Positions 35,946 through 51,628 are shown, counted from the first letter of the stretch. The stretch is 64,000 bases of DNA from Tepidamorphaceae bacterium (GCA_028289445.1 JANQPO010000014.1:18620-82619); one strand, 5' to 3'. A program made the numbers and translations. The notes: generated by a model not told the origin, from the sequence alone.

Positions 35946-36038
35946 GTTTCACGCTTGCTGACTAAAGACCTGCTCCGATCGCTTGCCACGGGCTAAGCGC
36001 GGCGCCATTGTGACCGTTGCGCAGGCAGCGGGGCAGCA

Positions 36039-37067
36039 ATGACAATTGGTGTCGGACTAGCGGGTTTCGGTCTTTCGGGACGGTTCCTGCATGCCCCGCT
36101 TATAAAGGCGGCAGGGATGGAGATTCGCGCCGTCGCCTCATCGCGCGTCGCCGATATCAGGGCGGATTTTCCAAACGCTGAACCGGTCGCCGATCTGGGC
36201 GGGCTTATCCTACGCGACGATGTCGATCTGGCGGTGCTCACGACGCCAAACGACCTTCATTACGCGCAAGCGAATGCGGCGTTAAAGGCGGGAAAGCACG
36301 TTGTTGTCGAAAAACCCTTTGTTCCAGCGGCAGATGAAGCCGACACGCTTATAGCGTTGGCGGAAAAGGAGAAACGCAAGCTCTCCGTCTACCACAATCG
36401 CCGATGGGACTCCGACTTCCTGACGATCCAGAAGCTCTTGGCGGAGCCCCGGCTTGGAACGGTTTATCGGTTTGCCATGCGCTGGGATCGGTTTCGGCCA
36501 GAGGTCCAAGACCGGTGGCGTGAGAAAGACGGTCCGGGCGCCGGGCTTCTCTATGACCTGGGCAGTCATATGATCGATCAGGCGCTACAACTGTTCGGCA
36601 TGCCGGACTGGCTGCAAGCGAATGTTGCCGCGCAGCGACCGGGCGCCGTCGTCGATGACGCTTTCGATATCCTGATGGGTAAGGGCGCTCTGCGCATCAG
36701 CCTGGGTGTCAGCTCAATCGCCGCCGACAATGCGCTCCGATATCGCGTGGATGGCGATGCGGGTTCGTTCGTGAAGTCCGGTCTCGACGTTCAGGAAGCG
36801 CAATTGCGGGCCGGTGAGGCGCCGGACACCGCCGACTTTGGAGTCGAGCCGGAAGCGCAATGGGGCACGTTCACAGATGACAATGGCGATCAACAAATCG
36901 TTCGTGCCGAGCGCGGATCATGGCTAACCTTCTATCGTCAGATGCGGAACGCGATCGAGAGCGACGAACCGGTCCCGGTCGACCCACGCTCTGCACGCGA
37001 TGTTATCGCTGTGATCGAGGCCGCGCGACAAAGCTCCGACGCCGGCAAGCGCGTGCCATTTCAATGA
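36039..37067 (+). CDS. Gfo/Idh/MocA oxidoreductase (YdgJ/IolW-like)
   Basis: GFGLSG..H.P, VEKP, YHNRRWDSDF and DLGSH motifs. Confidence 0.85.
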   Translation: MTIGVGLAGFGLSGRFLHAPLIKAAGMEIRAVASSRVADIRADFPNAEPVADLGGLILRDDVDLAVLTTPNDLHYAQANAALKAGKHVVVEKPFVPAADEADTLIALAEKEKRKLSVYHNRRWDSDFLTIQKLLAEPRLGTVYRFAMRWDRFRPEVQDRWREKDGPGAGLLYDLGSHMIDQALQLFGMPDWLQANVAAQRPGAVVDDAFDILMGKGALRISLGVSSIAADNALRYRVDGDAGSFVKSGLDVQEAQLRAGEAPDTADFGVEPEAQWGTFTDDNGDQQIVRAERGSWLTFYRQMRNAIESDEPVPVDPRSARDVIAVIEAARQSSDAGKRVPFQ

Positions 37068-37081: not shown

Positions 37082-38722
37082 TTGCCTGATTACATCATCA
37101 TCGGTGGCGGCTCGGCTGGCTGCGTGCTCGCGAACCGGCTGTCGGAGGATCCAGACGTAACGGTCCTGCTTCTGGAGGCCGGTGGGCGCGATTGGCACCC
37201 GCTTGTCCATATCCCGGCCGGTTTCGCCAAGATGACGAAGGGCATCAATTCCTGGGGCTGGTCGACCGTGCCGCAGCGGCATGTGGGCGACCGTGTCTTC
37301 TGGTACACCCAGGCGAAGGTGCTGGGCGGCGGTTCGTCGATCAACGCGCAGATCTACACGCGCGGCAATGCAGCCGACTATGACGCTTGGGCGCGCGACC
37401 ACGACTGCGCCGGCTGGGGCTATCGTGAAGTCCTCCCATACTTCACGCGCGCTGAGGATAATCAGCGCTTCGCCAACGATTATCATGGAAGCGGCGGGCC
37501 GCTCGGCGTGTCGAACCCGATTGCGCCACTGCCGATCTGCGAAGCGTTTTTCCGTGCCGCGCAACAGGCCGGGTTGCCCTTCAACCCGGACTTCAACGGC
37601 CGCACCCAGGAAGGCGTCGGCTACTACCAACTCACCCAGCGTGGTGCCCGGCGGTCTTCGGCATCGGTGGCCTATCTGAAACCGGTTGAAAGGCAACGAC
37701 CCAATTTGACCATCCGCACGGGTGTCAGCACCACGCGCATTCTTGTCGAGAACCAGCGGGCCACCGGCGTAGAGATCTTCGGGTGCGACGGCGGAGATGC
37801 GAAGAGAATTGTCGCTGAACGCGCGGTGATTTCCGCTTGCGGGGCAATCGGTTCGCCGAAGCTCTTGATGCAGTCCGGTATCGGTCCGGCCGATCATCTG
37901 CGCGACGTTGGTGTTGACGTCGTGCATGACCTACCTGGGGTCGGCGGCAACCTGCAGGATCACGTCAATTTGTTCACGATCAGCGAATGCACCGGTGATC
38001 ATTCCTATGACGCCTATGCCAAGCTTCACCGCACGCTGTCGGCCGGCATACAATACCTTTTGCTTGGCACCGGACCCGCCGCGTCCAGTCTCTTTGAGAC
38101 GGGCGGGTTCTGGTATGCCGATCCGGCGGCACGCTCGCCGGACGTCCAATTCCATTTGGGTCTGGGATCCGGCATCGAGGCTGGTGTCATCAAGCTCGAC
38201 AATCCGGGTGTGACGCTCAATTCGGCCTATCTGCGGCCGAAATCGCGCGGTTCCGTGCGTTTGTCCAGCGCAGATCCATCGGTTGCTCCGCTGATCGATC
38301 CGAACTATTGGGCGGAGCCGGATGATCGGGCCTTGGCTTTCGAGGGGTTGAAGCTCGCACGCACCATTATGCGCCAGCCGGCGCTTGAAGCCTTCATCAA
38401 ACGCGAGATTTTGCCTGGCCCGGATGCGTTCAGCGACAATGACCTGTTCGCCTATGCCTGTAAGACCGCAAAGACGGATCATCATCCCGTCGGCACCTGC
38501 AAGATGGGCGTCGATGACTTGGCCGTCGTCGATCTGGATCTGAAAGTGCGCGGTCTGGAGGGGCTCTATGTTTGCGATGCCTCGGCGATGCCTCAGATCC
38601 CGTCATCCAACACCAATGCGCCGACCATCATGATCGGTGAGAAGGGTGCCGATCTGATCCGTGGCCGTTCGCCGTTGCCGCCGGCCGTGTTTGAAGGCAA
38701 CCTATCGCGCGAAGGCGAGTGA
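37082..38722 (+). CDS. GMC-family FAD oxidoreductase (sorbose dehydrogenase-like)
   Basis: GGGSAG, LGGGSSINA, HHPVGTC and NTNAP motifs. TTG start. Confidence 0.85.
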   Translation: MPDYIIIGGGSAGCVLANRLSEDPDVTVLLLEAGGRDWHPLVHIPAGFAKMTKGINSWGWSTVPQRHVGDRVFWYTQAKVLGGGSSINAQIYTRGNAADYDAWARDHDCAGWGYREVLPYFTRAEDNQRFANDYHGSGGPLGVSNPIAPLPICEAFFRAAQQAGLPFNPDFNGRTQEGVGYYQLTQRGARRSSASVAYLKPVERQRPNLTIRTGVSTTRILVENQRATGVEIFGCDGGDAKRIVAERAVISACGAIGSPKLLMQSGIGPADHLRDVGVDVVHDLPGVGGNLQDHVNLFTISECTGDHSYDAYAKLHRTLSAGIQYLLLGTGPAASSLFETGGFWYADPAARSPDVQFHLGLGSGIEAGVIKLDNPGVTLNSAYLRPKSRGSVRLSSADPSVAPLIDPNYWAEPDDRALAFEGLKLARTIMRQPALEAFIKREILPGPDAFSDNDLFAYACKTAKTDHHPVGTCKMGVDDLAVVDLDLKVRGLEGLYVCDASAMPQIPSSNTNAPTIMIGEKGADLIRGRSPLPPAVFEGNLSREGE

Positions 38723-38802
38723 TGCGGTTCGCGCAAAGAGATCAAGGCGCAGTGGACGTGCTCGCGATCGGGCCGGTGGGATCAGGTTATCAACCGTGCT
38801 GC

Positions 38803-38830
38803 TTGAAATAACCAATTAGTTACTTATAAT
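38803..38830 (+). promoter_or_regulatory. sigma70 promoter TTGAAA-N16-TATAAT with palindromic operator TAACCAATTAGTTAC filling the spacer
   Basis: Near-consensus hexamers. The operator recurs at 48654-48670. Confidence 0.75.
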
Positions 38831-38870
38831 CCAGCGCAACCAAAATTTGAGACCAGGGAGGCCCGCGCCA

Positions 38871-40370
38871 ATGGACGAGAAAGCGCCGATTCTATCTCTA
38901 CCGTCCGAGCCGCGCTCGTTCGGTTTCTTTGTCGAAGGCGCGTGGCTCGATGCCGGTGATCGTAAGATCATGGAGCGTGAAAGTCCCGCCCACGAGGTGC
39001 CGGTAACACGCATTCCGCTGTGCACTGCGGCCGATCTGGACCGCGCTGTCACGGCCGCGCGGGCGGCGTTCGAAGACCGGCGCTGGTCGGGTCTTTCAGG
39101 TGCTGAACGCGCCGCTGTATTGTCGAAGGCGGCCGCAGGCATTCGCGCCAGGGTCGATGAGTTGGCCTATTGGGAGACGCTTGAGAACGGCAAGCCGATT
39201 GCGCAGTCGCGCGGCGAGGTCGAGGGCGCCGCCGGCATCTACGACTACGCGGCCGGCGCGGCGCGGATGCTCCACGGCGATACGTTCAACAATCTCGGCG
39301 ATAAGATGTTGGGTCTGGTCACCCGCGAACCGATCGGGGTCGTTGGGCTCATCACGCCGTGGAATTTCCCGTTCTTTATCTTGTCGGAACGGGTGCCGTT
39401 CGTTCTGGCGGCCGGTTGCACGATTGTTGCGAAGCCGAGCGAGTTCACGTCGGCCACGTCCCTGATCATGGCGGATATCCTGGCCGACGCCGGTCTGCCG
39501 GCCGGTGTCTACAATGTCGTGCCCGGCCTGGGCGCAGAAGTTGGCCAAGCAATGACCGAGCATGCGGACATCGACATGGTGTCGTTCACCGGGTCGAGCC
39601 GCGTGGGGCGGAGCGCGATCCAGGCGGCGTCCGGCAACTTCAAGAAGCTCGGTCTGGAACTCGGCGGCAAGAATCCGCAGATCGTGTTCGCAGACGCCGA
39701 CCTAGACGATGCCGCCGACGGCGTCGCGTTCGGCCTGGCTTTCAACACCGGCCAATGCTGCGTGTCCGGCAGCCGACTCGTCGTCGAGGCGTCGATTGCC
39801 GACGATTTCACCGCACGATTGTCCGAGAAGCTGGCCAAGGTCAGGGTCGGCGATCCGCTCGACCCTGCGACGCAAGTCGGCGCCATCACCACGGACGCGC
39901 AGAACGCCACCATTCTCGACTACATCGCCGCCGGTCAGGCGGCCGGCGCGACGCTCGTGACCGGCGGCGCGTCCATCGATCGAGGAAAGGGCCGGTTCAT
40001 CGCGCCGACGCTCTTTGCCGGCGTCACCCGTGACATGACGATCGCCCGAGAAGAGATTTTCGGTCCGGTGCTCAGTGTCTTCCCATTCGCGACGCCGGAC
40101 GAGGCAATCGCAATCGCCAATGACACAAACTATGGCCTGGCAGCCAGCATTTGGACAAAGGACATTGACAAGGCGATCCAGACGTCCAGGCGCGTTCAGG
40201 CCGGTCGGGTGTGGGTCAACTGCACGATTACCGGCGGACCGGAATTGCCTATCGGCGGCTTCAAACAATCCGGCTGGGGCCGCGAGACCGGGATCTACGG
40301 GGTCGAGGAATACACCCAAATCAAGTCCGTCCACATCGAACTCGGCAAGCGCGATCCTTGGATCGCTTAG
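38871..40370 (+). CDS. NAD(P)-dependent aldehyde dehydrogenase (L-sorbosone dehydrogenase-like)
   Basis: PWNFP, FTGS, LELGGK, GQCC and EEIFGP motifs. Resembles Gluconobacter SNDH as I recall it. Confidence 0.85.
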   Translation: MDEKAPILSLPSEPRSFGFFVEGAWLDAGDRKIMERESPAHEVPVTRIPLCTAADLDRAVTAARAAFEDRRWSGLSGAERAAVLSKAAAGIRARVDELAYWETLENGKPIAQSRGEVEGAAGIYDYAAGAARMLHGDTFNNLGDKMLGLVTREPIGVVGLITPWNFPFFILSERVPFVLAAGCTIVAKPSEFTSATSLIMADILADAGLPAGVYNVVPGLGAEVGQAMTEHADIDMVSFTGSSRVGRSAIQAASGNFKKLGLELGGKNPQIVFADADLDDAADGVAFGLAFNTGQCCVSGSRLVVEASIADDFTARLSEKLAKVRVGDPLDPATQVGAITTDAQNATILDYIAAGQAAGATLVTGGASIDRGKGRFIAPTLFAGVTRDMTIAREEIFGPVLSVFPFATPDEAIAIANDTNYGLAASIWTKDIDKAIQTSRRVQAGRVWVNCTITGGPELPIGGFKQSGWGRETGIYGVEEYTQIKSVHIELGKRDPWIA

Positions 40371-40413
40371 GAGTGGACAACGGCCTTAGTGCCTGAAGGG
40401 AGTGAGACGCACC

Positions 40414-41997
40414 ATGGCAAAGCGCATGACGGCGGCGGAAGCGGCGAGGTTGATCGGCAACGGCGAGGTCGTTGCGGTCAACTCGTCGAGCGGTCTTTGC
40501 TGCCCCGACGCCGTGCTTGAGGCGATCGGCCAGCGTTTCCGTGAAACAGGTGCGCCTCGTGGCCTGACAACTGTCCATCCGATTGCAGCCGGCGACATGT
40601 TCGGAACCAAGGGCGTCGATCATATGGCGCAGGAGGGCCTCATCTCGACGATCATCGGCGGGTCCTATCCCTCCGGTCCGTCGTCGTCCGAACCGCCGCT
40701 GATCTGGCAAATGCTTCTCGACAATCGGGTTGCCGCCTACAATGTCCCGAGCGGTATCGTTTTCGATGCCCTGCGCGAAGCGGCTGGCCTTCGTCCCGGT
40801 GTGATGACCAAGGTGGGTCTCGATACGTTCGTCGATCCTGACCAGGACGGCTGTGCGATGAACGATGCGGCACGCCAAAAGCCCATCGTCAAGAAGATCG
40901 ACTTTGAGGGTGAGGAATGGCTCTACTTTCCTGCGATTAAGCCTGATGTCGCAATCATCCGTGCCACGACAGCCGATGAGCGCGGCAATCTCACCTTCGA
41001 GCAAGAGGGCGCCTATTTGGGAGCCATGGAGCTGGCGCTTGCGGCTCACAATTGCGGCGGGCGGGTGATCGCGCAGGTGCGCCGTGTCGCCGAGGCCGGC
41101 ACGCTCAAGCCTCACGATGTGCGCGTGCCCGGCATCCTTGTCGATGCTATTGTTGAAGCGCCTGAAATGCTTCAAACGACGGCAACCGCGTACGATCCGG
41201 CCATCTCGGGCGAACTCTTCAGGCCCTTGAACAGCTTCAAGATGCCCGAATTCGATGCCGCTAAGGTCATCGCCAGGCGCGTTGCGGTGGAGCTTGAAAA
41301 AGGCTGGGCGGTCAACATCGGGTTCGGCATCTCGGCCAATGTGCCGCGCATCTTTCTGGAAGAGGGGCGGCACGGTGATGTCACCTGGGTGATCGAGCAG
41401 GGCGCGGTAGGCGGTATCCCGCTGCTTGATTTCAAGTTCGGCTGCGCATCGAACGCCGAAGCCTTCGTCGCATCGCCCCACCAGTTCAGCTACTTTCAAG
41501 CGGCGGGCTTCGATGCCTCGCTGCTTTCGTTCCTTCAGATCGACCGGAATGGGTCGGTGAACGTTTCAAAGCTCTCGGCACGGCCGCACGTCACCGCCGG
41601 CGCGGGCGGCTTTGTCGACATTACCGCACGGGCAAAGAAGATCGTCTTTTCTGGCTATTTCAACGCCGCCGCCAAGCTGGCGGTCGAAGACGGCCAACTC
41701 AAGATCAACAAGGAAGGCAAGGTTGCCAAGCTTGTCGATGAAGTCGAGCATGTGTCGTTTTCCGGCCGGCGGGCGGTCGCACAGGGCCAGGACGTCACCT
41801 ACGTCACGGAGCGATGCGTCATGCGGTTGACGCTCGAGGGGCCGACGGTGATCGAGGTCGCGCCCGGTGTCGACATTGATCGCGACATTCAGGGCCAGTC
41901 GGAAATTCCGCTCAAGATCGCGTCGGATGTCCGGCCGATGAACGCGGCGTTGTTTCAGCCCGCGTGTTTCGGGCTGGGTGCGGGCAGTGTGCAATGA
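40414..41997 (+). CDS. acyl-CoA:acetate/3-ketoacid CoA transferase (YdiF/Pct-like, fused alpha-beta)
   Basis: TKVGLDTFVDP, TTADERGN, EQG (catalytic Glu), GGFVDI and VTERCV motifs. Confidence 0.88.
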   Translation: MAKRMTAAEAARLIGNGEVVAVNSSSGLCCPDAVLEAIGQRFRETGAPRGLTTVHPIAAGDMFGTKGVDHMAQEGLISTIIGGSYPSGPSSSEPPLIWQMLLDNRVAAYNVPSGIVFDALREAAGLRPGVMTKVGLDTFVDPDQDGCAMNDAARQKPIVKKIDFEGEEWLYFPAIKPDVAIIRATTADERGNLTFEQEGAYLGAMELALAAHNCGGRVIAQVRRVAEAGTLKPHDVRVPGILVDAIVEAPEMLQTTATAYDPAISGELFRPLNSFKMPEFDAAKVIARRVAVELEKGWAVNIGFGISANVPRIFLEEGRHGDVTWVIEQGAVGGIPLLDFKFGCASNAEAFVASPHQFSYFQAAGFDASLLSFLQIDRNGSVNVSKLSARPHVTAGAGGFVDITARAKKIVFSGYFNAAAKLAVEDGQLKINKEGKVAKLVDEVEHVSFSGRRAVAQGQDVTYVTERCVMRLTLEGPTVIEVAPGVDIDRDIQGQSEIPLKIASDVRPMNAALFQPACFGLGAGSVQ

Positions 41998-42782
41998 GCG
42001 GATCGCCGGACCCGCGCCTGTCTCTGAAGATCGATGGCCCCATCGCTCTTTTGACCATCGACCGGGCAGACAAGCTGAATGCGCTCGACGATCAAATGGT
42101 GGAGGCACTTGGTGCGCACTGCCGCGCGATCGAGAGAAATGATGTTGTGCGGGTGGCGATTATCACCGGCGCTGGGGACAAGGCGTTTTCGGCCGGTGGT
42201 GACATCGATGCTTGGAGCGCGAATGCGCCGGAAGACTTTAGCCGCTTCTGGGTCCGCGAAGGACATGAGGCCTTCTCGGCGTTGGCCCGATTGCGCCAGC
42301 CGGTCATCGCGGTTTTGAACGGCCACGCACTGGGTGGCGGCTTTGAGTTGGCTGCCGCCGCCGATCTGCGGATCGCGGAGGATCATGTCAAGATCGGTCA
42401 GCCCGAGGCAGGGCTCGGCATCATACCGGGCTGGTCCGGAACGCAGCGGGCCGTTCGCCGGTTTGGATCGCAGATCGTTCGTCGCATGGCGTTGTTCGGC
42501 GACGTGTTCGACGCCAATGAGGCGCTGACGCACGGATTGGTCGACAGCGTGGTGGAAAAGGGAAGGGGCCTTGAGCGTGCGCGCGAGATCGCGGCGGTTG
42601 TCGCCAAGCGAGGACCCCGAGCAACCGAACTGACAAAGATGCTGATCAATGCCGCGGAGGGGGAAGAGCGCGAGCGCATCTTGGAATCCCTCGCCGGTGG
42701 ACTGGCAGCCTCATCTCAGGAGCTTAAAGAAGGGATCGTGGCGTTTCGCGCCAAGCGGCCGCCGGACTTCGGTGAAACGTGA
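41994..42782 (+). CDS. enoyl-CoA hydratase/isomerase
   Basis: FSAGGD, GGGFE and PEAGLG motifs. ATGA overlap. Confidence 0.88.
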   Translation: MSGSPDPRLSLKIDGPIALLTIDRADKLNALDDQMVEALGAHCRAIERNDVVRVAIITGAGDKAFSAGGDIDAWSANAPEDFSRFWVREGHEAFSALARLRQPVIAVLNGHALGGGFELAAAADLRIAEDHVKIGQPEAGLGIIPGWSGTQRAVRRFGSQIVRRMALFGDVFDANEALTHGLVDSVVEKGRGLERAREIAAVVAKRGPRATELTKMLINAAEGEERERILESLAGGLAASSQELKEGIVAFRAKRPPDFGET

Positions 42783-42787
42783 ACGGA

Positions 42788-43822
42788 TCAGTCGTCGCGG
42801 AACATTGGAACAGGCTGGTCGATCCATTGCAGTTCGGCCATGTCGGCGCCGTCGATGCGCTTGAGGATCACATCTCCCAGCTTGCGCGCCGCCGCGACCA
42901 AGTCTTCTTCAATCATATCAATCGCCGGCCGCATCTGGTCGAAAATCGGCGTGGTCCGCTTTGCGACAACGTCCACGTCTTCGCCGATCGCGAGGCCGCC
43001 GTCGACAATCGCAGCCATCACCGCCATCGCCGAGACCTCGCCACCGCACACCAAGCCATCCGCGTTGCCTGCGGAAAATCGGGAGAGGGCGAACCGACGC
43101 ACCTCTTCGGGCGGGCTCTCGATCGTCAGGTCGGGCGCCACCTCAAAGGCGACGCCGCTCTCTCGGATCGCTGACATGAAGCCGTGGCGCATGTGTTGGG
43201 AGAACGTGTAGGCCGGCGGCGCGTTGATCAGGACCAGCTTGCGCCGGCCTTTCTCGATCAGTCTCTTTGTTGCCAGATAGGCGAACTGGTAGTTATCGTA
43301 ATCGACGAAGGGATGCGAAGTGGCGAGTTCGGTGCGCCCGTGACTGACGAACGGGAAGTCGTGTTCGAGCAGCAGTTTGACACGCGGGTCCAGCGGCTCG
43401 GTGCGGGCGAAAATTATTGCGTCAGCGAGACGGTTTCTCAGGATATGACGGACCGGGTTCACCGGGTCCTCACCCTCGAAGTTTGGCATGACGACCAAGT
43501 GATATGGCGTGTTGCGCAGCACGGCCGCCAAACCGGCGATCATCGACGTGCCGAACCCGATGATCTCCTCGTGGGGCGCCAGAACGAAGCTTATGACGTT
43601 GGTTCGTCCGGTCCTGAGCCGCTGCGCGGCGCGATCCGGCACGTAACCGATCTGATTGGCGACGGCGCGGACGCGGGCGCGGGTCTCCTCGGCGATCTCC
43701 GGCGCATCTTTCAGTGCCCGCGACACCGTCGTGACGGCCAGGCCGGTCGCCGTCGCGATCGTCTTCAGCGTCGGCTTCTCGACCAGTCCCGTTGTCGGCG
43801 AGGCGGATTTTTGTCCAGGCAT
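42788..43822 (-). CDS. LacI-family regulator
   Basis: TLKTIA..TGLAVTTVSRAL HTH. Divergent from the ABC operon. Confidence 0.88.
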   Translation of the reverse strand: MPGQKSASPTTGLVEKPTLKTIATATGLAVTTVSRALKDAPEIAEETRARVRAVANQIGYVPDRAAQRLRTGRTNVISFVLAPHEEIIGFGTSMIAGLAAVLRNTPYHLVVMPNFEGEDPVNPVRHILRNRLADAIIFARTEPLDPRVKLLLEHDFPFVSHGRTELATSHPFVDYDNYQFAYLATKRLIEKGRRKLVLINAPPAYTFSQHMRHGFMSAIRESGVAFEVAPDLTIESPPEEVRRFALSRFSAGNADGLVCGGEVSAMAVMAAIVDGGLAIGEDVDVVAKRTTPIFDQMRPAIDMIEEDLVAAARKLGDVILKRIDGADMAELQWIDQPVPMFRDD

Positions 43823-43859
43823 GTTCAACTCGGGTCGCCAGTGTCACTGAACAGAAGAT

Positions 43860-43877
43860 ATTTGCAACGTTACAAAT
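43860..43877. promoter_or_regulatory. LacI operator ATTTGCAACGTTACAAAT
   Basis: Near-perfect palindrome with central CG. Paired with 43990-44005. Confidence 0.7.
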
Positions 43878-43989
43878 GTGCAAGGGGATGGATAAAATTC
43901 GTTGTGAGTTGATAATCTCATAAAAAATCGATAAAAAACAATACGATACAAGGTTATAGAATTATGAATGCTCTCTTGACGAATAGTAG

Positions 43990-44005
43990 TTTGTAACGTT
44001 ATAAA
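43990..44005. promoter_or_regulatory. LacI operator TTTGTAACGTTATAAA overlapping a putative -10 (with -35 TTGACG at 43976)
   Basis: Near-perfect palindrome similar to the site at 43860. Confidence 0.7.
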
Positions 44006-44067
44006 TCACGATTAGATTCCCGATCACGACATATGTGCTCGCGGAATGGTTCAAAAGGGAGGAACAC

Positions 44068-45321
44068 ATGACAACGTTTCGTGCAGCGAAATATCTGGCT
44101 GGGGTGGCAGTCGTCGCCTTGTCGGCGGTTAGCGCGCAGGCTGAGGAAAGCGTCGAAGTCCTGCACTGGTGGACGTCAGGTGGCGAGGCCGCCGCGTTGG
44201 ACGTTCTCAAGAAGGATTTGGAATCCAAGGGTGTGAGCTGGGCCGATATGCCGGTTGCCGGCGGTGGGGGTGAGCAGGCCATGACCGCCTTGCGCGCCCG
44301 CGTCACGGCCGGCAATGCGCCGACCGCCGTCCAGATGCTCGGCTTCGATATTCTCGACTGGGCCAAGGAAGGCGCGCTCGGCAATCTGAATGAGGTTGCC
44401 GCCGCCGAGGGCTGGGACAGTGTCGTACCGACGGCGTTGCAGGGCTTCGGCAAGTATGACGGCAACTGGATTTCGGCCCCGGTCAATGTCCACTCGACCA
44501 ACTGGGTGTGGATCAGCAAATCCGCGCTCGACGCGGCTGGTGGCAAGGCGCCGGAGTCTTGGGACGAACTCGTCGCCGTGCTCGACAAGATGCAGGAGAA
44601 CGGGCTGACCGCGCTCGCCCATGGCGGTCAGGCCTGGCAGGACGCGACCATCTTCGATGCCGTCGTGCTGTCGCTCGGCACCGACTTCTACAAGGCGTCG
44701 ATGATCGATCTCGATCCGGCGGCGCTCGGGGGCGACCAGATGGTCGAAGCCTTCGACCGGATGTCGAAGCTGCGCTCCTATGTCGACGATAACTTCTCCG
44801 GTCGCGACTGGAACCTGGCGTCCGCGATGGTGATCGAGGGCAAGGCCGGTATGCAGATGATGGGCGACTGGGCCAAGGGCGAGTTCCTTAAAGCCGGGCA
44901 GGTGCCGGGCCAGGACTTCGTCTGCATCCGGTTCCCGGGCACGCAGGGTGCCGTGACCTTCAACTCCGACCAGTTCGCCATGTTCAAGGTCGGCGACGAT
45001 CGCACCGGACCGCAAAAGCTGATGGCGTCGGCGATCATGAGCCCGACCTTCCAGTCGGCGTTCAACGTCGTGAAAGGCTCCGTTCCGGCGCGCACGGATG
45101 TCCCGAACGATGCCTTCGACGATTGCGGCAAGAAGGGCATGGTCGACCTGGCCGATGCTAATTCAAGCGGCACGCTCTATGGCTCCATGGCCCACGGCCA
45201 TGCGGCGCCGGCTGCGGTCAAGAACGCCGTTTATGACGTCGTGACCCGGCACTTCAACGGCGAGCTTTCGAGCCAGGAAGCCGTCGAAGAACTCGCCGCC
45301 GCCATCGACGCGGTCAAGTAG
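44068..45321 (+). CDS. sugar ABC substrate-binding protein (glucose/mannose GtsA-like)
   Basis: Signal peptide, [19 protein letters not shown] and SMAHG motifs. Confidence 0.88.
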
Positions 45322-45333
45322 GACTTCCTCCTA

Positions 45334-45390
45334 GCGCATCGGGCAATTGGCCCGGTGCGCCAAGAACCGGGGCGGGGATCAACCTCGCCC
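45334..45390 (+). other. two GC hairpins between SBP and permease genes
   Basis: GCGCATCGGGC/GCCCGGTGCGC and GGGGCGGGG/CCTCGCCCC. Confidence 0.55.
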
Positions 45391-45417
45391 CAACAACGAT
45401 CGGCCAGGGGGCGCGCC

Positions 45418-46293
45418 ATGAAGGAGCGGTTGCAGGAACTCACGCCGAAGCTGGTGCTTTCGCCGAGCTTCTTCCTGATCCTGTTCTTCGTCTACGGCTT
45501 CATCGTCTACACCGGCTACCTGTCGATGACCGACTCGAAGATGCTGCCGTCCTATGGCTGGGTTGGGCTCGACAATTACGAGCGCCTTTGGAAGCTGCCG
45601 CACTGGAAGCGATCGCTGAACAACCTGGCGGTCTTCGGGATTCTCTACATTGTCGTCTGTACGGTGCTCGGCTTGCTCGCTGCGATCCTGCTCGATCAGA
45701 AGATCCGCGCGGAAGGCCTGCTGCGGCCGATTTATCTGTACCCGATGGCGCTGTCGTTCATCGTGACGGGAACCGCCTGGAAGTGGTTCCTGGACCCCGG
45801 CATCGGCCTCGAAAACACCATCCATCAATGGGGCTGGGAGACCTTCTCCTTCGATTGGATCAAGAACCGCAATTACGCGATTTATACGGTTGTGATCGCC
45901 GCCGTGTGGCAATCCTCGGGCTTCGTCATGGCTATGTTCCTGGCGGGGCTGCGCGGTGTTGACAACGAGATCATCAAAGCGGCTCAGATCGACGGGGCGT
46001 CGACCGTGCGCATCTACCGCCGCATCATCATTCCGCTCATGCGGCCGGTGTTTCTTTCCGCTTTCGTCGTTCTCGCGCACTTGGCGATCAAGGCCTACGA
46101 CTTGGTCATTGCGCTGACCGGCGGTGGGCCTGGTCAGGCGACGGAACTGCCGGCGACCTTCATGTATTCCTACACGTTCACGAGGAACCTGATGGGGATC
46201 GGTGCGTCGTCGGCGATCATCATGCTCATCATGATCTTTTCCATCATCATTCCCTACCTTTATTCGGAACTGAGAGGAGGGAAGACGCAATGA
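45418..46293 (+). CDS. sugar ABC permease
   Basis: TM segments and KAAQIDGAS motif. Confidence 0.9.
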   Translation: MKERLQELTPKLVLSPSFFLILFFVYGFIVYTGYLSMTDSKMLPSYGWVGLDNYERLWKLPHWKRSLNNLAVFGILYIVVCTVLGLLAAILLDQKIRAEGLLRPIYLYPMALSFIVTGTAWKWFLDPGIGLENTIHQWGWETFSFDWIKNRNYAIYTVVIAAVWQSSGFVMAMFLAGLRGVDNEIIKAAQIDGASTVRIYRRIIIPLMRPVFLSAFVVLAHLAIKAYDLVIALTGGGPGQATELPATFMYSYTFTRNLMGIGASSAIIMLIMIFSIIIPYLYSELRGGKTQ

Positions 46294-47171
46294 GCCAGCC
46301 CTCCGCCGACGTGGCCGTCCAAACCAACCGGCTCGTGCGCATCGCGATCTATACGGCACTGATTGTTCTCGCGGTCTACTACCTGCTGCCGTTTTACGTG
46401 ATGGTGGTGAACTCGCTGAAGCCGCTCGACGAAATCCGCGAGGGCGACATGCTGGCCCTGCCGCGCCAATGGACCATCGCGCCCTGGCTCTCGGCGTGGT
46501 CGACGGCCCAGATCGGCGTCGAGCCCACGGGCCTGCGCCCTTACTTCATGAACTCGATATTCATGGTGGTTCCAGCGGTCGCATTGTCGACCATTCTTGG
46601 CGCCCTCAACGGCTATGTGCTGACTAAGTGGCGCTTCCCGGGCCACAACCTGGTGTTCGGCATGATGCTTTTGGCCTGCTTCATTCCCTTCCAGATCGTC
46701 CTCATCCCGATGGCGCGCGTGCTCGGTATTCTAGGGCTTGCCGGCACGACCTGGGGCTTGGTGCTCGTCCACACGGTTTACGGTCTGGGCTTCACGACAC
46801 TGTTCTTCCGCAACTACTACGAGGCCTTCCCGACTGAGCTTGTGCGCGCCGCGCAGATCGACGGTGCTTCCTTCTTCCAGATCTTCCGGCGCATCCTGTT
46901 GCCGTCTTCGGGACCGATCATCGTCGTCACCGTGATCTGGCAGTTCACCAATGTGTGGAACGACTTCCTGTTCGGCGCGTCGTTCGCCGACGTCGACTCC
47001 GTGCCGATGACGGTCGCCCTCAACAATCTCGTCTCCTCGTCGACGGGCGTGAAAGAATACAACGTCCACTTTGCCGGCGCGATCCTCGCAGCGTTGCCGA
47101 CCCTCATCGTCTACGTCGTCTCCGGACGCTATTTCGTGCGCGGCCTGATGGCTGGCGCCGTGAAGGGATAG
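46290..47171 (+). CDS. sugar ABC permease
   Basis: RAAQIDGAS and GLMAGAVKG motifs. Confidence 0.9.
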   Translation: MSQPSADVAVQTNRLVRIAIYTALIVLAVYYLLPFYVMVVNSLKPLDEIREGDMLALPRQWTIAPWLSAWSTAQIGVEPTGLRPYFMNSIFMVVPAVALSTILGALNGYVLTKWRFPGHNLVFGMMLLACFIPFQIVLIPMARVLGILGLAGTTWGLVLVHTVYGLGFTTLFFRNYYEAFPTELVRAAQIDGASFFQIFRRILLPSSGPIIVVTVIWQFTNVWNDFLFGASFADVDSVPMTVALNNLVSSSTGVKEYNVHFAGAILAALPTLIVYVVSGRYFVRGLMAGAVKG

Positions 47172-47176
47172 TCACC

Positions 47177-48292
47177 ATGGCCTTTCTCGAAATCCGCAAC
47201 TTGATGAAGTCCTTCGGCAATGTGGATGTGCTGAAAGGCATCAATATCGAAATCGAGGAGGGCGGCTTCTTGGTTCTCGTTGGGCCGTCGGGCTGCGGCA
47301 AGTCGACGCTTCTGAACACCATTGCGGGCCTTGAGGCGATCACCAGCGGCGACATCAGCATTGGCGGCCGCTCCGTGGCGGGGTTGCACCCGTCGAAGCG
47401 CGATATCGCCATGGTGTTCCAAAGCTATGCGCTTTATCCGAACATGACGGTCGCGCAGAACATCGGCTTCGGCATGGAAATCCGCGGCATTGGCCAGACC
47501 GATCGCGACAAGGCAATTGCTGACGTCTCCGAGCTTTTACAGATCGGCCATTTGCTCGACCGCAAGCCGTCGCAGCTTTCCGGCGGTCAGCGCCAGCGTG
47601 TTGCCATGGGCCGTGCACTTGTTCGCGAACCGCAGGTGTTTCTGTTCGACGAGCCGCTGTCGAACCTCGATGCCAAGCTGCGGGTTGACATGCGCACTGA
47701 GATCAAACGGCTACATCAGCGCATGGGCACGACGATCGTTTACGTCACGCACGACCAGATCGAGGCGATGACGCTTGCGACCAAGATCGCGGTCCTCAAA
47801 GACGGCATTCTTCAACAGTTCGGCTCGCCGGCCGAAATCTACAACGACCCGGCCAATATGTTCGTCGCCGACTTCATGGGGTCGCCCTCCATGAACCTCA
47901 TCCCGGCGCGGATCGAGACCGAAGGGAACGGTGTGGCCGTAGTCATCTCCAAGCGCGGCGGTGGCGAAGCGGTGCGCCTTCCTGTCGAGAATGCCAATGG
48001 TCTGACCGCCCATGCCGGTGCTGATGTTATCTTCGGGATCCGGCCGGAAGCGCTGACCGATCCTGACGGCGCCGACCGCACCGGCGGCGGACTGGTCAAT
48101 GCTGTTTGTCCGATCGAGGTCGTTGAGCCGGCCGGCTCCGATACGTTCGCCGTCACGCATCTGGGCGACATCGAGGTGACGGCCAGGCTTCGCGCGGATG
48201 CCGCGATCGAACCCGGCCGCGAGGAGACGCTAACCTTCAATATGACCAAGGCCGTGTTCTTCGATCCGAAAACCGAGAGCCGCATCGCATGA
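47177..48292 (+). CDS. sugar ABC ATPase (MalK/UgpC-like)
   Basis: GPSGCGKST, VFQSYALYP, LSGGQRQR and DEPLSNLD motifs. Confidence 0.92.
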   Translation: MAFLEIRNLMKSFGNVDVLKGINIEIEEGGFLVLVGPSGCGKSTLLNTIAGLEAITSGDISIGGRSVAGLHPSKRDIAMVFQSYALYPNMTVAQNIGFGMEIRGIGQTDRDKAIADVSELLQIGHLLDRKPSQLSGGQRQRVAMGRALVREPQVFLFDEPLSNLDAKLRVDMRTEIKRLHQRMGTTIVYVTHDQIEAMTLATKIAVLKDGILQQFGSPAEIYNDPANMFVADFMGSPSMNLIPARIETEGNGVAVVISKRGGGEAVRLPVENANGLTAHAGADVIFGIRPEALTDPDGADRTGGGLVNAVCPIEVVEPAGSDTFAVTHLGDIEVTARLRADAAIEPGREETLTFNMTKAVFFDPKTESRIA

Positions 48293-48600
48293 TCCGGCAC
48301 GTTGTCCTCTTGCGCTTTGCCGACGGCGTTTCAGCCTCGGACAAACAGGCGCTTTACGACGCGCTTGCGGCGCTGCGCGAGCACATCGCGGGGATCGTCG
48401 ACTTTCGGGCTGGCCCGAATGTCAGCGTCGAAGGGCCCCTCACACAGGGCTTCGACGATGGGTTCTGGTTCGATTTCGAGAACGCTGGCGTGCGCGACGC
48501 CTATCTGGTTCACCCGGAACACCAGGCCGTCGGCGCCCGTATTGTCGAGGCGACCAAGGACGGTCTCGACGGCGTTTTGGTCTTCGATTTCGAGCTATAA
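48289..48600 (+). CDS. Dabb (stress-responsive A/B barrel) protein
   Basis: IRHVVLLRF, GPNVS.E and YLVHPEH motifs. Confidence 0.85.
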   Translation: MIRHVVLLRFADGVSASDKQALYDALAALREHIAGIVDFRAGPNVSVEGPLTQGFDDGFWFDFENAGVRDAYLVHPEHQAVGARIVEATKDGLDGVLVFDFEL

Positions 48601-48653
48601 ACCAATCACGTGAGCGGGACGTTTGCTTGACCTTGAGGGCAGTGTTTGTTAAA

Positions 48654-48671
48654 AAGTAACTAATTGGTTAC
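48654..48671. promoter_or_regulatory. operator AAGTAACTAATTGGTTAC (TetR-like palindrome)
   Basis: 48654-48670 is the exact reverse complement of 38809-38825. It follows a putative TTGACC-N17-TAAAAA promoter. Confidence 0.75.
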
Positions 48672-48699
48672 AAACTGAAATTCGATAAGGGAGACCCAG

Positions 48700-49479
48700 G
48701 TGACGGATACGAATCCTCACGCCGCCTTTGTCACCGGCGCCAGTCGCGGTATCGGTCTCGGTGTCGCCTTGGCCCTTGCCGACAAGGGGTTTGCCGTCGC
48801 GCTGAATGCGCGCGAAGGGAGCGAAGAACTCAAGGAGGCATGCCGCGCCGTTGAAGAGCGCGGGGTCAAGGCTGTCGCGGTTGCTGGCCATGTCGATGAT
48901 ATCGGCAATCACACGGCCATGCTGGACCGTGCGGAGGCGAAAATCGGTCCGCTGTCGACGCTGGTTAACAATGCCGGCGTCTCGGTGCTGAGCCGTGGCG
49001 ATCTTCTCGATGCGTCGGAGGACAGCTACGACCGCTGCATGGCGGTGAACGCCAAGGCCCTGTTCTTTCTCTCGCAGGCTTTCGCCAAACGGCTTGTTTC
49101 GCGCGACCGCGACGACGGTCGAGCCTACAGCATCGTCAATGTGACGTCCGCGAACGCGGCGGCTGCCGCCATAAATCGCGGCGAATACTGTGCGTCCAAA
49201 GCGGCGGCCGCGATGATCTCGAAAGTCTTCGCGGCACGGCTCGGCGGGGAGGGGATCGCTGTCTACGATGTGCAACCGGGCCTGATTGAAACAGCGATGA
49301 CGGCGGGCGTCAGCGACGATTATCGCCGTCGCGCCGAAGCCGGACTGACGCTTATCCCGCGCCTGGGCCAACCGGACGATATCGGTCAGGTCGTCGCCAC
49401 GCTTGCCGCCGGCGGGCTTCCCTACACGACCGGGCAGGTCGTTTCCGCCGATGGCGGGATGCTCCTCTCGCGCTTTTAG
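48700..49479 (+). CDS. SDR oxidoreductase (3-ketoacyl-ACP reductase-like)
   Basis: TGASRGIG, NNAG and YCASK motifs. GTG start after AAGGGAG. Confidence 0.85.
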   Translation: MTDTNPHAAFVTGASRGIGLGVALALADKGFAVALNAREGSEELKEACRAVEERGVKAVAVAGHVDDIGNHTAMLDRAEAKIGPLSTLVNNAGVSVLSRGDLLDASEDSYDRCMAVNAKALFFLSQAFAKRLVSRDRDDGRAYSIVNVTSANAAAAAINRGEYCASKAAAAMISKVFAARLGGEGIAVYDVQPGLIETAMTAGVSDDYRRRAEAGLTLIPRLGQPDDIGQVVATLAAGGLPYTTGQVVSADGGMLLSRF

Positions 49480-49489
49480 GTCGCCGCCG

Positions 49490-50638
49490 ATGCACATCCG
49501 CCTACCCGACGAAACTGGCGCTTTTAGCGACTACGCCCTCATCGGAACGCCGATTAACGCCGCACCGCTTAGTGCAGATCCCGTTCGCACCGTGTTTTCC
49601 GCCGCGCATGTCGTCGCCGACCCGTTCACCGGCAACGATCCCTCCGGTCCGGCGACTGTCGATTGGGAGGCGACGATGGCGTTTCGGCGTCATTTGGCAG
49701 GTCTCGGTCTGGGTATCGCCGAAGCGATGGACACGGCACAGCGCGGCATGGGACTGGACTGGCCAGGCGCGCTGAAGTTGATCCGCCGCACCAGGGCTGA
49801 GCTACCGGACGCCCTGGTCTTCAACGGCGCCGGGACGGATCACCTCGATCCGGCAGACGCGCAGTCGCTGGATGATGTGCGCCGTGCCTATGATGAGCAG
49901 CTTTCGGCGATCCAGAGCATCGGCGGTCGCATCATCCTAATGGCCAGCCGCGCCTTGGCGCGGGTTGCGTCCGGACCGGACGACTATATCTCCGTCTACC
50001 GTGATGTTCTGGCGAACGCTGATGAACCCGTCGTTCTGCATTGGCTGGGTGATATGTTCGATCCGGCGCTTGCGGGATATTGGGGCGCGGACGATTTCGA
50101 ATCGACTCTAGAGACTTGCCTCCAAGTCATTGAGGAAAATGCAGAAAAAGTTGATGGCATCAAGATCTCGTTGCTCGATAAGGACAAAGAGATCGTCATG
50201 CGTCGACGCCTGCCGAACGGCGTGAAGATGTATACGGGAGACGACTTCAACTATCCCGAACTGATTGCCGGCGACGATCAACGCTATTCTCACGCATTGC
50301 TCGGCATTTTCGATCCGCTGGCGCCGGCCGCCGCCCATGCCATCGCGCAGTTGGGTGCAGGCGACGTGACCGGTTTCCGCGCGACTCTCGATCCGACGGT
50401 GCCACTGGCGCGTCTGATCTTCCGCGCTCCGACGCAATACTATAAGACCGGTGTCGTTTTCCTCGCGTGGTTGAACGGCTTCCAGGATCACTTTGTCATG
50501 CTGGGTGGAGCACAGGCGATGCGGCCACTCCCATATTTCGTCGAAACGTTCAAATTGGCTGACGCGTGCGGGCTGCTGCGCGATCCGGATCTGGCCGTCG
50601 AACGGATGAAAAAGCTACTCGCGATCTACGGCGTTTGA
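49490..50638 (+). CDS. DUF993 / dihydrodipicolinate synthase-like protein
   Basis: AAHVVADP, AEAMDTAQRGMGLDW, HWLGDMFDP, GIKISLLD and YTGDDFNY motifs. Confidence 0.8.
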   Translation: MHIRLPDETGAFSDYALIGTPINAAPLSADPVRTVFSAAHVVADPFTGNDPSGPATVDWEATMAFRRHLAGLGLGIAEAMDTAQRGMGLDWPGALKLIRRTRAELPDALVFNGAGTDHLDPADAQSLDDVRRAYDEQLSAIQSIGGRIILMASRALARVASGPDDYISVYRDVLANADEPVVLHWLGDMFDPALAGYWGADDFESTLETCLQVIEENAEKVDGIKISLLDKDKEIVMRRRLPNGVKMYTGDDFNYPELIAGDDQRYSHALLGIFDPLAPAAAHAIAQLGAGDVTGFRATLDPTVPLARLIFRAPTQYYKTGVVFLAWLNGFQDHFVMLGGAQAMRPLPYFVETFKLADACGLLRDPDLAVERMKKLLAIYGV

Positions 50639-50642
50639 GCCG

Positions 50643-51503
50643 ATGCGCGACTTCTCAAACGATCATTCCGCCCTGGCGCTCAATACGGCGACGCTGGGTC
50701 ACAACGTCGATGGCCATGGCGCGGGCTGGTCGCCTGAGCGAGTGATCGATGCCTGCGCGGCGCGTGGGTTTGGCGCCATCACCTATTGGCGGCGGGAGAT
50801 CGGCGATCGCGCGGTTGACATCGGCGAGCGAACGCGCGCGGCCGGCCTGTCCGTGTCGGGGTTATGTCGGACGCCGTTCCTTGTGGGACCATTGGCCCCG
50901 CCAACGCGTGCGGCGGTGATCGACGATTTCAAGGCTTCGATCGACATGACGGCGGACCTGGAAGCGACCTGCCTCACGATCGTCGTCGGCGGCGTGATCG
51001 AAGGGTCTCACAGCCTGACGGAAAGTTTGAAAGCGGTCGCCGATATCGTGGCGGAGATGGCATCGCGCGCTCAGCAGGGCAATGTCAAATTGGCGCTCGA
51101 ACCCTTGAATCCCGTCTATGGTGGCAATCGCTCCTGTTTGGTTACCGTGCGAGACGCGGTCGATCTGTGCGACGCCATCGACAACCCCGCTGTCACCATC
51201 GCCGTCGATGTTTATCACGTGTGGTGGGACCTCTCGCTGGCGACGGAACTGAAGCGCGCCGGCAGTGCGCGGATCGCCGGATATCACCTGTGCGATTGGC
51301 TTGCCGACACGACCGATGTGTTGCTCGATCGCGGCATGATGGGCGACGGTGTCGCCGATTTGAAGGCGATCCGTGAAGCTGTTGAAGGAGCAGGCTATTC
51401 CGGGTTCTGCGAGGTCGAGATTTTTTCGGCGAACGATTGGTGGAAACGCGATCCGGGCGAAGTTCTGGATACCTGCGTGGAGCGCTTCCGCACCGTTTGC
51501 TAG
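50643..51503 (+). CDS. sugar phosphate isomerase/epimerase (xylose-isomerase-like TIM barrel)
   Basis: LEPLNP, DVYHVWWD, HLCDW, DRGMMGDG and EVEIFS motifs. Confidence 0.8.
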   Translation: MRDFSNDHSALALNTATLGHNVDGHGAGWSPERVIDACAARGFGAITYWRREIGDRAVDIGERTRAAGLSVSGLCRTPFLVGPLAPPTRAAVIDDFKASIDMTADLEATCLTIVVGGVIEGSHSLTESLKAVADIVAEMASRAQQGNVKLALEPLNPVYGGNRSCLVTVRDAVDLCDAIDNPAVTIAVDVYHVWWDLSLATELKRAGSARIAGYHLCDWLADTTDVLLDRGMMGDGVADLKAIREAVEGAGYSGFCEVEIFSANDWWKRDPGEVLDTCVERFRTVC

Positions 51504-51628
51504 AGCACTCTCGGTAAAGCCCGAGTCATTGAAAGTGCTCTATCTCTTTGATCTAGAGCATGTTCTTGTCCGAAAACCGCTCCCATCCCCGCCTTCGCGG
51601 GGACAGGCTTTTTGGGGAACATGTTCTA
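51501..51628. repeat. bipartite palindromic intergenic element (RIME/CIR/BRU-RS-like) with nested REP-like hairpin
   Basis: Arms TAGAGCACT..AGTGCTCTA and TAGAGCATGTTC..GAACATGTTCTA, with inner TCCCCGC-CTTC-GCGGGGA. Confidence 0.7.

Follow-up and report, generated by a model that had tools for sequence, protein, structure and literature searches.

Gene content of the DUF993 locus

A 64,000-nucleotide stretch from a Tepidamorphaceae bacterium (GCA_028289445.1, JANQPO010000014.1:18620-82619), referred to here as the window, carries at positions 37082-51503 a set of genes that a first-pass annotation had read as a CoA-dependent catabolic pathway for a sugar or sugar acid, including a protein of the family DUF993. 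Genes were assigned to families by Pfam and NCBIfam profile searches, plus PDB sequence comparison. All of the families named at first pass (GMC oxidoreductase, aldehyde dehydrogenase, CoA-transferase, crotonase, short-chain dehydrogenase/reductase, DUF993 and TIM barrel) were recovered by Pfam on the plus strand. A LacI gene (42788-43828), a CUT1 ABC importer and a Dabb gene lie inside the same coordinates and had not been listed. The features are as follows.

37082-38722, +, GMC oxidoreductase, choline-dehydrogenase-like (PF00732 and PF05199; NCBIfam PRK02106 572 bits, below cut-off)
38803-38830, +, sigma-70-like promoter TTGAAA-16 nt-TATAAT of the aldehyde dehydrogenase (ALDH) operon (11 of 12 matches, best of the scanned region)
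38808-38823, unstranded, operator ATAACCAATTAGTTAC, within the spacer of that promoter
38871-40370, +, NAD(P) ALDH, relative of L-sorbosone dehydrogenase (SNDH) (PF00171, 575 bits)
40414-41997, +, fused family-I CoA-transferase, YdiF/FadX type (PF01144; NCBIfam FadX 315 bits, below cut-off)
41994-42782, +, enoyl-CoA hydratase (crotonase) (PF00378, 169 bits)
42788-43828, -, LacI-family regulator, transcribed away from the ABC importer (PF00356, PF13377, PF00532)
43861-44005, unstranded, LacI-type palindromes TTTGCAACGTTACAAA (43861-43876) and TTTGTAACGTTATAAA (43990-44005), between the LacI gene and the gene for the substrate-binding protein (SBP)
44068-48292, +, CUT1 ABC importer, whole (Pfam)
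44068-45321, +, importer SBP, glucose-binding-protein-like (Pfam, PDB comparison)
45355-46293 and 46290-47171, +, importer permeases (Pfam)
47177-48292, +, importer MalK-type ATPase (Pfam)
48289-48600, +, Dabb (α+β barrel) protein (PF07876, 72 bits)
48656-48671, unstranded, operator GTAACTAATTGGTTAC, 29 bp upstream of the start of the next gene
48700-49479, +, short-chain dehydrogenase/reductase (SDR) (PF00106 and PF13561; NCBIfam PRK12745 331 bits, cut-off 250)
49490-50638, +, DUF993 protein (PF06187, 603 bits against a cut-off of 24, model positions 1-382)
50643-51503, +, xylose-isomerase-like TIM barrel (PF01261, 123 bits; PDB 3JU2 (SMc04130) 236 bits)
51586-51613, +, terminator-like hairpin ending the SDR-DUF993-TIM unit (7-pair stem, 6 of them G-C, then TTTTT)

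The ALDH gene starts at an ATG at 38871 that is preceded by GGGAGG. Both halves of a family-I CoA-transferase are held in one chain (pcaI-like residues 10-253 and pcaJ-like residues 288-493 by NCBIfam), as in the fused YdiF type, and the protein matches YdiF itself (PDB 2AHU) with 343 bits across residues 10-525. The crotonase ATG (41994) overlaps the CoA-transferase stop codon, and its product contains GGGFE at 124-128 (E128) and PEAGLG at 147-152 (E148), which we take to be the sites of the two catalytic glutamates of hydratases; on that assumption both residues claimed at first pass are present. The SDR is named "3-ketoacyl-ACP reductase" by the NCBI model PRK12745, and relatives of the TIM barrel carry the annotation sugar phosphate isomerase/epimerase. 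The start of the Dabb gene overlaps the stop of the ATPase gene, and in other genomes Dabb comes after the crotonase gene. Plus-strand open reading frames (ORFs) at 42779-43174 and 43184-43912 gave no Pfam match.

A shared operator and a split cluster

The ALDH and SDR blocks had been tied together at first pass by a shared operator. This link is borne out, as copies of the palindrome lie upstream of both and belong to one conserved regulon. Operator ATAACCAATTAGTTAC sits between the two promoter hexamers of the ALDH operon, which is the classical position for a repressor, and a promoter-like pair (TTGACC-17 nt-TAAAAA) just before GTAACTAATTGGTTAC was read by eye and falls under the scan threshold. 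With at most one mismatch, the pattern GTAACnnnnnnGTTAC has 3 matches in the window against 0.26 expected. The LacI-type boxes TTTGYAACGTTRYAAA match nowhere in the window but between the LacI and SBP genes (4 strand-matches, with 0.05 expected). Because these palindromes are confined to that stretch, the importer (with Dabb), probably under LacI control, and the enzyme operons appear to be differently regulated.

The operator was then scanned for in the whole assembly (3.95 Mb, 26 contigs). The remaining good copies form one pair on contig C21, between a minus-strand aldo-keto reductase (AKR) gene and a plus-strand acyl-CoA dehydrogenase (ACAD) gene. Two further exact matches were not counted as regulon members: C10:130200 (L091 about 3001) lies inside a 531-aa ORF, and C14:180827 (L092 about 3028) lies in an AT-rich spacer, 14 bp before a 122-aa ORF. 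The genes on C21, in locus order, are as follows.

TetR_C_29-type regulator, -, first in locus order
CUT2 sugar-type SBP and ABC genes, after the TetR gene
Zn-dependent alcohol dehydrogenase and a small cupin-like protein, after the CUT2 ABC genes
Second GMC oxidoreductase, after the cupin-like gene
DkgB-like AKR (-), MaoC hydratase (-) and 338-aa AKR (-), in that order after the GMC gene
Operators, then ACAD (+), after the 338-aa AKR

The ACAD gene is followed by a catalase-peroxidase gene (KatG-like, L002 11261-13441) and a LysR gene (13558-14475), so that on C21 the ACAD forms a single-gene unit downstream of the operators. Each cluster gene, on the window or on C21, is single-copy at the orthologue level in this genome. 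The genome splits a cluster that is single in most relatives, with the remainder behind the same palindrome on C21.

Conservation of the cluster across relatives

A search with the window DUF993 protein, with one genome per species, matched at least 600 stretches, 591 of them encoding relatives. The locus counts given here and below refer to the best 80 of the at least 591 relatives, taken with 10-kb flanks and labelled by tblastn with the window and C21 proteins. Where DUF993 shares 62% identity or more with that of the window, 49 of 54 loci have CoA genes within 10 kb; the first-pass annotation had named a lack of such co-occurrence as refuting, and it is not refuted. Of the five loci without them, four are on contigs of 2-13 kb and L048 is a genuine exception. 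Below 62% identity a CoA gene accompanies DUF993 in 2 of 26 loci. The cluster is present in Rhizobiaceae, Paracoccaceae, Acetobacter, Pseudomonas, Caballeronia and Variovorax (Alpha-, Beta- and Gammaproteobacteria), and tblastn places a complete copy at about 764-788 kb of the Sinorhizobium meliloti 1021 plasmid pSymA.

The recurrent layout is ALDH-GMC, AKR2(-), CoA-transferase-crotonase(-Dabb/glycerate kinase), (MaoC-)AKR1(-) and ACAD-SDR-DUF993-TIM(-EtfBA). Among the 80 loci, the TIM barrel is the commonest partner (75, directly after DUF993 in 71), followed by the SDR (46), the CoA-transferase (43; orthologues at 65-78% identity beside DUF993 in 35), TetR (39), an ACAD orthologue (36), crotonase and the cluster-type GMC (31 each), AKR1 and AKR2 (22 each), glycerate kinase (14), ALDH and MaoC (13 each), Dabb (12), electron-transfer flavoprotein (ETF; 10) and the glucose-type SBP (8). 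Gene order is kept as SDR-DUF993-TIM in 42 loci, ACAD-SDR-DUF993-TIM in 30, CoA-transferase-crotonase in 29 and ALDH-GMC in 13. LacI homologues of 45-50% identity occupy the same position as the window gene in two loci (L025 and L045). Among the unlabelled ORFs of 50 CoA-type loci examined, there was no thiolase or other conserved gene, and no conserved member of the CoA-synthetase family. The ACAD is of the ordinary short-chain type (its PDB neighbours are short-chain ACADs; the best NCBIfam model is AcrC, 385 bits, below cut-off) and is regarded as accessory because an orthologue is absent from four of the five genomes whose loci have no ACAD.

The operator is conserved together with these genes. 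RTAACYnnnnRGTTAY occurs at 75 sites in 37 of 51 CoA-type loci (0.94 Mb), against 0.05 in dinucleotide shuffles, and at 0 sites in the 29 non-CoA loci. The sites lie upstream of ACAD (25), the CoA-transferase (20), AKR1 (12), AKR2 (8), TetR (4) and GMC (1), with 5 elsewhere; 70 of the 75 are at most 250 bp upstream of a cluster gene, and none falls within coding stretches matched by tblastn. In this genome a TetR gene lies 7 kb from the C21 enzymes, and in Pseudomonas, Acetobacter and many metagenome-assembled genomes the clusters contain TetR_C_29 genes with 56-72% identity to the C21 regulator. From their presence within the clusters we infer that a TetR_C_29-type repressor binds RTAACYnnnnRGTTAY. 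The promoter region of the C21 TetR gene itself has no full operator, just a half-site-like GTAAC...GTTAT with different spacing. Taken together, the ALDH-CoA-transferase-crotonase operon, the SDR-DUF993-TIM operon, the importer and the C21 genes very probably constitute one co-regulated system.

The window GMC oxidoreductase, which the first-pass annotation had counted as a pathway member, is not supported in that role. It is a paralogue of the C21 GMC (53% identity), and the cluster GMCs of relatives are 65-83% identical to the C21 copy and about 50% to the window copy. A window-type GMC (60-67%) stands beside DUF993 or ABC genes in three loci (L012, L035 and L037). The window gene begins 14 bp after a Gfo/Idh/MocA gene and lies upstream of the ALDH operator and promoter, which puts it outside the ALDH transcription unit. 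Its place in the pathway is uncertain, and it may belong to an IclR-side unit (30533-37067) rather than to the DUF993 regulon.

That upstream region holds an IclR gene (-) diverging from genes for a class-V aminotransferase, a PALP enzyme, an alanine-racemase-N/D-serine-dehydratase-like protein and ornithine cyclodeaminase. A gap of 93 bp separates the latter from a YvaA-like MocA oxidoreductase, which is followed by the window GMC. The MocA gene was considered as a 1,5-anhydro-D-fructose reductase (AFR) and rejected, as it scores 48-52 bits to 2GLX/4KOA against 283 bits to YvaA. The biochemistry of AFR was reportedly described by Kühn, Yu and Giffhorn in 2006. No AFR-like gene was seen in the annotated loci, and a homologue of the window MocA gene occurs in one of the 80, at 32% identity.

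The DUF993 protein

At first pass no assigned function was known for DUF993, and a search of the literature is in line with this. The structure of a family member has been available since 2012 (4DNH), yet a literature search found no paper naming DUF993 or PF06187, nor one on the cluster; supplements were not covered. Searches on anhydrofructose or anhydroglucitol, and on sorbosone dehydrogenase with CoA enzymes, likewise found no paper on the cluster.

The window protein matches 4DNH ("hypothetical protein SMc04132") with 478 bits. An AlphaFold2 model built on 20 sequences (pLDDT 87.7) was compared by Foldseek, which returned 4DNH first and then DHDPS, PhdJ, HOGA and YagE with E values of 1e-9 to 1e-7; against the DHDPS/NAL enzymes the target TM score is 0.65-0.81 at 12-17% identity. 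On this model, DUF993 is a divergent DHDPS/NAL-type (β/α)8 barrel. K225, the lysine of the GIKIS motif, is invariant in 20 of 20 DUF993 sequences, from loci with and without CoA genes, and is placed by the model on the sixth barrel strand (β6, residues 221-227). The fold matches and this residue are in line with the aldolase-like barrel and GIKIS lysine of the first-pass annotation. Alignment with hhalign pairs K225 with the Schiff-base lysine K160, which is invariant in the five DHDPS paralogues of this genome, although the match is weak. DUF993 resembles the class I aldolases of the DHDPS/NAL family (KDG aldolase, DapA, KdgD, PhdJ/NahE) in its (β/α)8 fold and perhaps in its invariant β6 lysine. 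It differs from them in its low identity and in having no PF00701 match at E ≤0.001, DTAQRG in place of GxxGE and His-Trp in place of Tyr, and it is about 90 residues longer. The GxxGE carboxylate-binding motif and a catalytic Tyr (YxxP) define the DHDPS/NAL family.

The DUF993 loci without CoA genes form one well-supported clade in a quick tree (63 of 81 rows; 18 were dropped because the tblastn range ran across an upstream stop codon). Their layout is TetR, a NitT/TauT-type ABC importer, a large protein with no Pfam match, Gfo/Idh/MocA, DUF993 and TIM. These MocA-type operons (Bradyrhizobium, Microvirga, Pantoea) resemble the window in that their DUF993 (54-61% identity) keeps the invariant residues and precedes a TIM barrel, and in a TetR_C_29 regulator of 46-51% identity. 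They differ in having no CoA genes, Gfo/Idh/MocA instead of the SDR, another transporter and no RTAACYnnnnRGTTAY. CoA chemistry is therefore not a property of DUF993 as such, and since the invariant residues are common to both contexts, DUF993 is taken to act on a shared, non-CoA intermediate. The large protein beside MocA may carry out the dehydration in these operons. In one such locus examined, that of Bradyrhizobium japonicum (L058 12125-13345), a cytochrome P450 gene directly follows the TIM gene.

Clues to the substrate

Transport genes and the ALDH give clues here. PDB 4R2B matches the window SBP with 682 bits, and the Pseudomonas sugar-binding proteins 5DVF and 8HQQ match it with 390-397 bits; these structures are reported to hold glucose. 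The same SBP type (56-81% identity) is found inside or beside the cluster in 8 loci, and a CUT1 glucose-type importer is operonic with the CoA-transferase and crotonase genes in L037, L055, L069 and L082, the CoA-transferase of the last being 70% identical to that of the window. The C21 SBP is allose/ribose-binding-protein-like.

Among solved ALDHs, that of the window is closest to 7W5L, an NAD(P) L-sorbosone dehydrogenase (753 bits, residues 6-498), with the next match at 553 bits (uncharacterised) and the rest at 406 or below; this points to a sugar aldehyde adjoining the ring oxygen. The first-pass idea that a sugar is oxidised to an aldehyde and then an acid gains support from this match; the substrate, the order of steps and the aldolase reaction are conjectural. 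The Gluconobacter pair of sorbose dehydrogenase (SDH) and SNDH, which converts L-sorbose via L-sorbosone to 2-keto-L-gulonate, provides a close parallel: ALDH is followed by a GMC flavoprotein in 13 of the 80 loci, and the Gluconobacter gene order, sndh-sdh, matches this ALDH-GMC order. The Gluconobacter product is excreted, whereas here the pair is embedded in a catabolic CoA/DUF993 regulon.

Other genes of the loci give further clues. The nearest solved relatives of AKR1 are aldose 1-dehydrogenases (L-galactose dehydrogenase, 93 bits). A MOFRL-type glycerate 2-kinase gene directly follows the CoA-transferase and crotonase genes on S. meliloti pSymA and in L045, and its presence in cluster loci suggests glycerate as an end product. 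All three Acetobacter loci hold an OprB porin, and in Acetobacter tropicalis (L027 15735-20220) the subunits of a membrane-bound FAD dehydrogenase (PF12318 "FAD-SLDH" small subunit, GMC-type large subunit, cytochrome c) directly follow the cluster TetR; the dehydrogenase and porin would fit a sorbitol/sorbose-type substrate.

A proposed pathway and its alternatives

Found as a single unit in many bacteria of soil, plants and the sea, the cluster probably serves the breakdown of a glucose-like sugar by way of CoA and DUF993. The route that we tentatively favour, without giving it an even chance, is essentially that of the first-pass annotation. It runs from a sugar acid through a CoA thioester, elimination by crotonase and cleavage by DUF993 to glycerate, each step being deduced from gene families and gene context. 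A neutral glucose-like pyranose would be imported, with 1,5-anhydro-D-glucitol or L-sorbose as candidates. The CH2OH group beside the ring oxygen would be oxidised to the aldehyde by an SDH-like GMC and to the acid by the SNDH-like ALDH. The CoA-transferase would form the thioester, making the α-proton more acidic, and crotonase would remove the β-hydroxyl to give a 2-keto-3-deoxy acid, opening the ring if the sugar is ring-locked, with CoA then handed to the next substrate molecule. DUF993 might cleave the 2-keto-3-deoxy acid by way of a Schiff base on a lysine, after which the C3 fragment would be turned into glycerate by the TIM barrel and SDR and taken into glycolysis by glycerate 2-kinase. 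ACAD with ETF, and MaoC, would be accessory, giving the same enoyl-CoA from deoxy or epimeric substrates.

CoA chemistry had been called unusual in sugar catabolism at first pass. This now has to be qualified, as there is a published genetic precedent: in Price et al. (2019, PMC6365646), a deoxyribonate cluster of Klebsiella michiganensis M5al is proposed, on genetic rather than biochemical evidence, to catabolise a sugar acid as CoA thioesters. The two systems share a CoA-transferase and a glycerate kinase (glycerate to 2-phosphoglycerate). A CoA-synthetase, a β-hydroxyacyl-CoA dehydrogenase and a thiolase also serve the Klebsiella pathway, whereas no synthetase or thiolase is conserved in the 50 CoA-type loci. 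Beyond the Klebsiella set, the DUF993 system adds crotonase, ACAD/ETF, MaoC, GMC, ALDH, two AKRs, DUF993 and the TIM barrel.

Several observations weigh against the proposed route. The importer adjoins the cluster in just 8 of the 80 loci, and a different CUT2 importer sits beside TetR here and in L007 and L009. Some loci (e.g. L055) have CoA-transferase-crotonase-SDR-DUF993-TIM but lack an orthologue of GMC or ALDH close by. ACAD (70-86%) and AKR1 (73-84%), which are the most conserved proteins, receive accessory roles alone, and the 3-ketoacyl reductase name of the SDR suits a β-oxidation-like role equally well. Ordinary dehydratases act on sugar acids without CoA, and the need for CoA is therefore explained only if the substrate is ring-locked. 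For DUF993 itself, the hhalign match to DHDPS is not significant alone (probability 0.16%, E 0.36), the GxxGE motif (GTTGE in the paralogues) is replaced by DTAQRG, and the position of the catalytic Tyr is taken by H184-W185 (stretch LHWLG); with neither motif nor Tyr, a pyruvate-type aldolase reaction is not assured.

A bolder form of this route, which we consider somewhat unlikely, makes the CoA thioester a handle on the sugar acid: by acidifying the proton at the carbon bearing the ring oxygen, it would let an ordinary crotonase remove the adjacent hydroxyl and so open a sugar ether ring that could not be broken otherwise. The cluster would then be an aerobic route for 1,5-anhydroglucitol, 1,5-anhydromannitol or similar ring-locked sugars, and DUF993 a new clade of lysine-Schiff-base lyases acting on 2-keto-3-deoxy-hexonate. 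The CoA-transferase and crotonase would, in that case, replace the presumed enolase-type dehydratase of the MocA-type operons.

Alternatively, the SDR, TIM barrel and DUF993 could oxidise, isomerise and split a free sugar into glycerate and a reduced C3 unit (3-hydroxypropanal, 3-hydroxypropionate or propanal), with only the small acid becoming CoA-bound. Here the transferase would be Pct/YdiF-like, crotonase a 3-hydroxypropionyl-CoA dehydratase, ACAD/ETF would act on acryloyl/propionyl-CoA, and GMC and ALDH would be the 3-hydroxypropionate and semialdehyde dehydrogenases. The Halomonas AcuN-AcuK-DddA-DddC set comprises the same four families. This division into an upper and a lower pathway gains from the YdiF-like CoA-transferase, from the ACAD, whose top NCBIfam model describes AcrC, an acryloyl-CoA reductase of Clostridium (385 bits, below cut-off), and whose PDB neighbours are short-chain, from ETF genes after TIM in 10 of the 80 loci, and from the occurrence of DUF993, TIM and a dehydrogenase without CoA genes in MocA-type loci. 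A published parallel is inositol fermentation in Anaerostipes, a sugar-like route that reportedly ends in a chain from 3-oxopropionyl-CoA to propionyl-CoA (PMC8355322). We nevertheless consider it unlikely. The four ACAD-less genomes without an orthologue would be left with a dead-end 3-hydroxypropionyl/acryloyl-CoA pair, the ALDH is far closer to a sugar-aldehyde dehydrogenase (753 bits) than to other solved ALDHs (553, and 406 or below), and its TIGR01722 score (275 bits, cut-off 448) sets it apart from the CoA-acylating malonate-semialdehyde type.

Quite unlikely, too, is a β-oxidation-like shortening of a deoxy-sugar acid, as proposed for K. michiganensis deoxyribonate. An AKR would oxidise an aldose to a 2-deoxy (or 2,3-dideoxy) aldonate that is CoA-activated; ACAD would desaturate it, or crotonase and MaoC epimerise it, and the SDR would oxidise C3. 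Cleavage would yield acetyl-CoA and glyceryl-CoA, from which the transferase and glycerate kinase would give 2-phosphoglycerate, with DUF993 and TIM providing C-C cleavage or a side reaction. The β-oxidation set is indeed encoded except for a thiolase (ACAD, crotonase, MaoC and the "3-ketoacyl reductase"-type SDR), the aldose 1-dehydrogenase kinship of AKR1 and the position of glycerate kinase after CoA-transferase-crotonase in S. meliloti and L045 would suit it, and the precedent holds a CoA-transferase and glycerate kinase (PMC6365646). Set against these are the lack of a thiolase or other β-keto-acid cleavage enzyme in the 50 CoA-type loci examined, the lack of a lactonase, the conserved DUF993 active site common to loci without CoA genes and the dispensability of ACAD in several genomes; the SDH/SNDH-like GMC-ALDH pair would also be left unexplained.

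A non-carbohydrate substrate, such as a soluble alcohol, diol or hydroxy acid oxidised by GMC and ALDH in the manner of AlkJ/AlkH and then by β-oxidation, is very unlikely. GMC, ALDH and CoA activation together follow the scheme of alkanol oxidation, only 8 of the 80 loci have the importer next to the cluster, and the weak NCBIfam matches of TetR include fatty-acid regulators (Bacillus FadR, 40 bits). The sugar importers would then have to be chance neighbours, with DUF993 and TIM acting on a side product, whereas three kinds of sugar uptake (CUT1 glucose-type, CUT2 allose/ribose-type, and OprB with MFS) are repeatedly found within or next to the cluster, in several genomes in one operon with CoA-transferase-crotonase, the ALDH is SNDH-like, glycerate kinase is present, and relatives of TIM and DUF993 occur in sugar-acid contexts elsewhere. 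That the CoA genes and the DUF993 block are unrelated neighbours with a coincidental palindrome, as the LacI gene and ABC operon between them in the window might suggest, is barely credible given that the two are kept together in 49 of 54 close loci from three classes (Alpha-, Beta- and Gammaproteobacteria), that the 16-bp operator stands at their promoters 75 times where chance would give 0.05, and that a third locus of the same genome has the operator and genes that elsewhere are contiguous with the CoA/DUF993 genes.

If the favoured route from sugar acid to glycerate is true, it gives DUF993 a testable reaction and adds a second, mechanistically different case of CoA-dependent sugar-acid catabolism. 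It could also account for the use of ring-locked or unusual hexoses by aerobic bacteria from soil, plant-associated and marine habitats. The whole cluster occurs on S. meliloti 1021 pSymA and in strains of Pseudomonas, Acetobacter and Paracoccus. The window contributes a naturally split cluster, which brings the regulon to light, together with the operator statistics, the dispensability of ACAD and the correction concerning GMC.

Other loci in the window

Further carbohydrate-related genes flank the locus. A myo-inositol-type catabolic cluster occupies 20355-29277, with genes for Dus, a class-II aldolase, IolB/KduI, a PfkB kinase and an IolD-like ThDP enzyme on the minus strand, an IolE-like TIM barrel and an IolG-like MocA protein on the plus strand, and a LacI gene at 28204-29277 (-). 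Downstream, 51626-57468 holds a D-2-hydroxyacid dehydrogenase gene (-), a second LacI gene, a CUT2 ABC importer and another xylose-isomerase-like TIM barrel; the D-2-hydroxyacid dehydrogenase is not kept beside DUF993 elsewhere (one of the 80 loci, at 34% identity). OpgC- and OpgG/MdoG-family genes for periplasmic glucan synthesis lie at 60690-63505.

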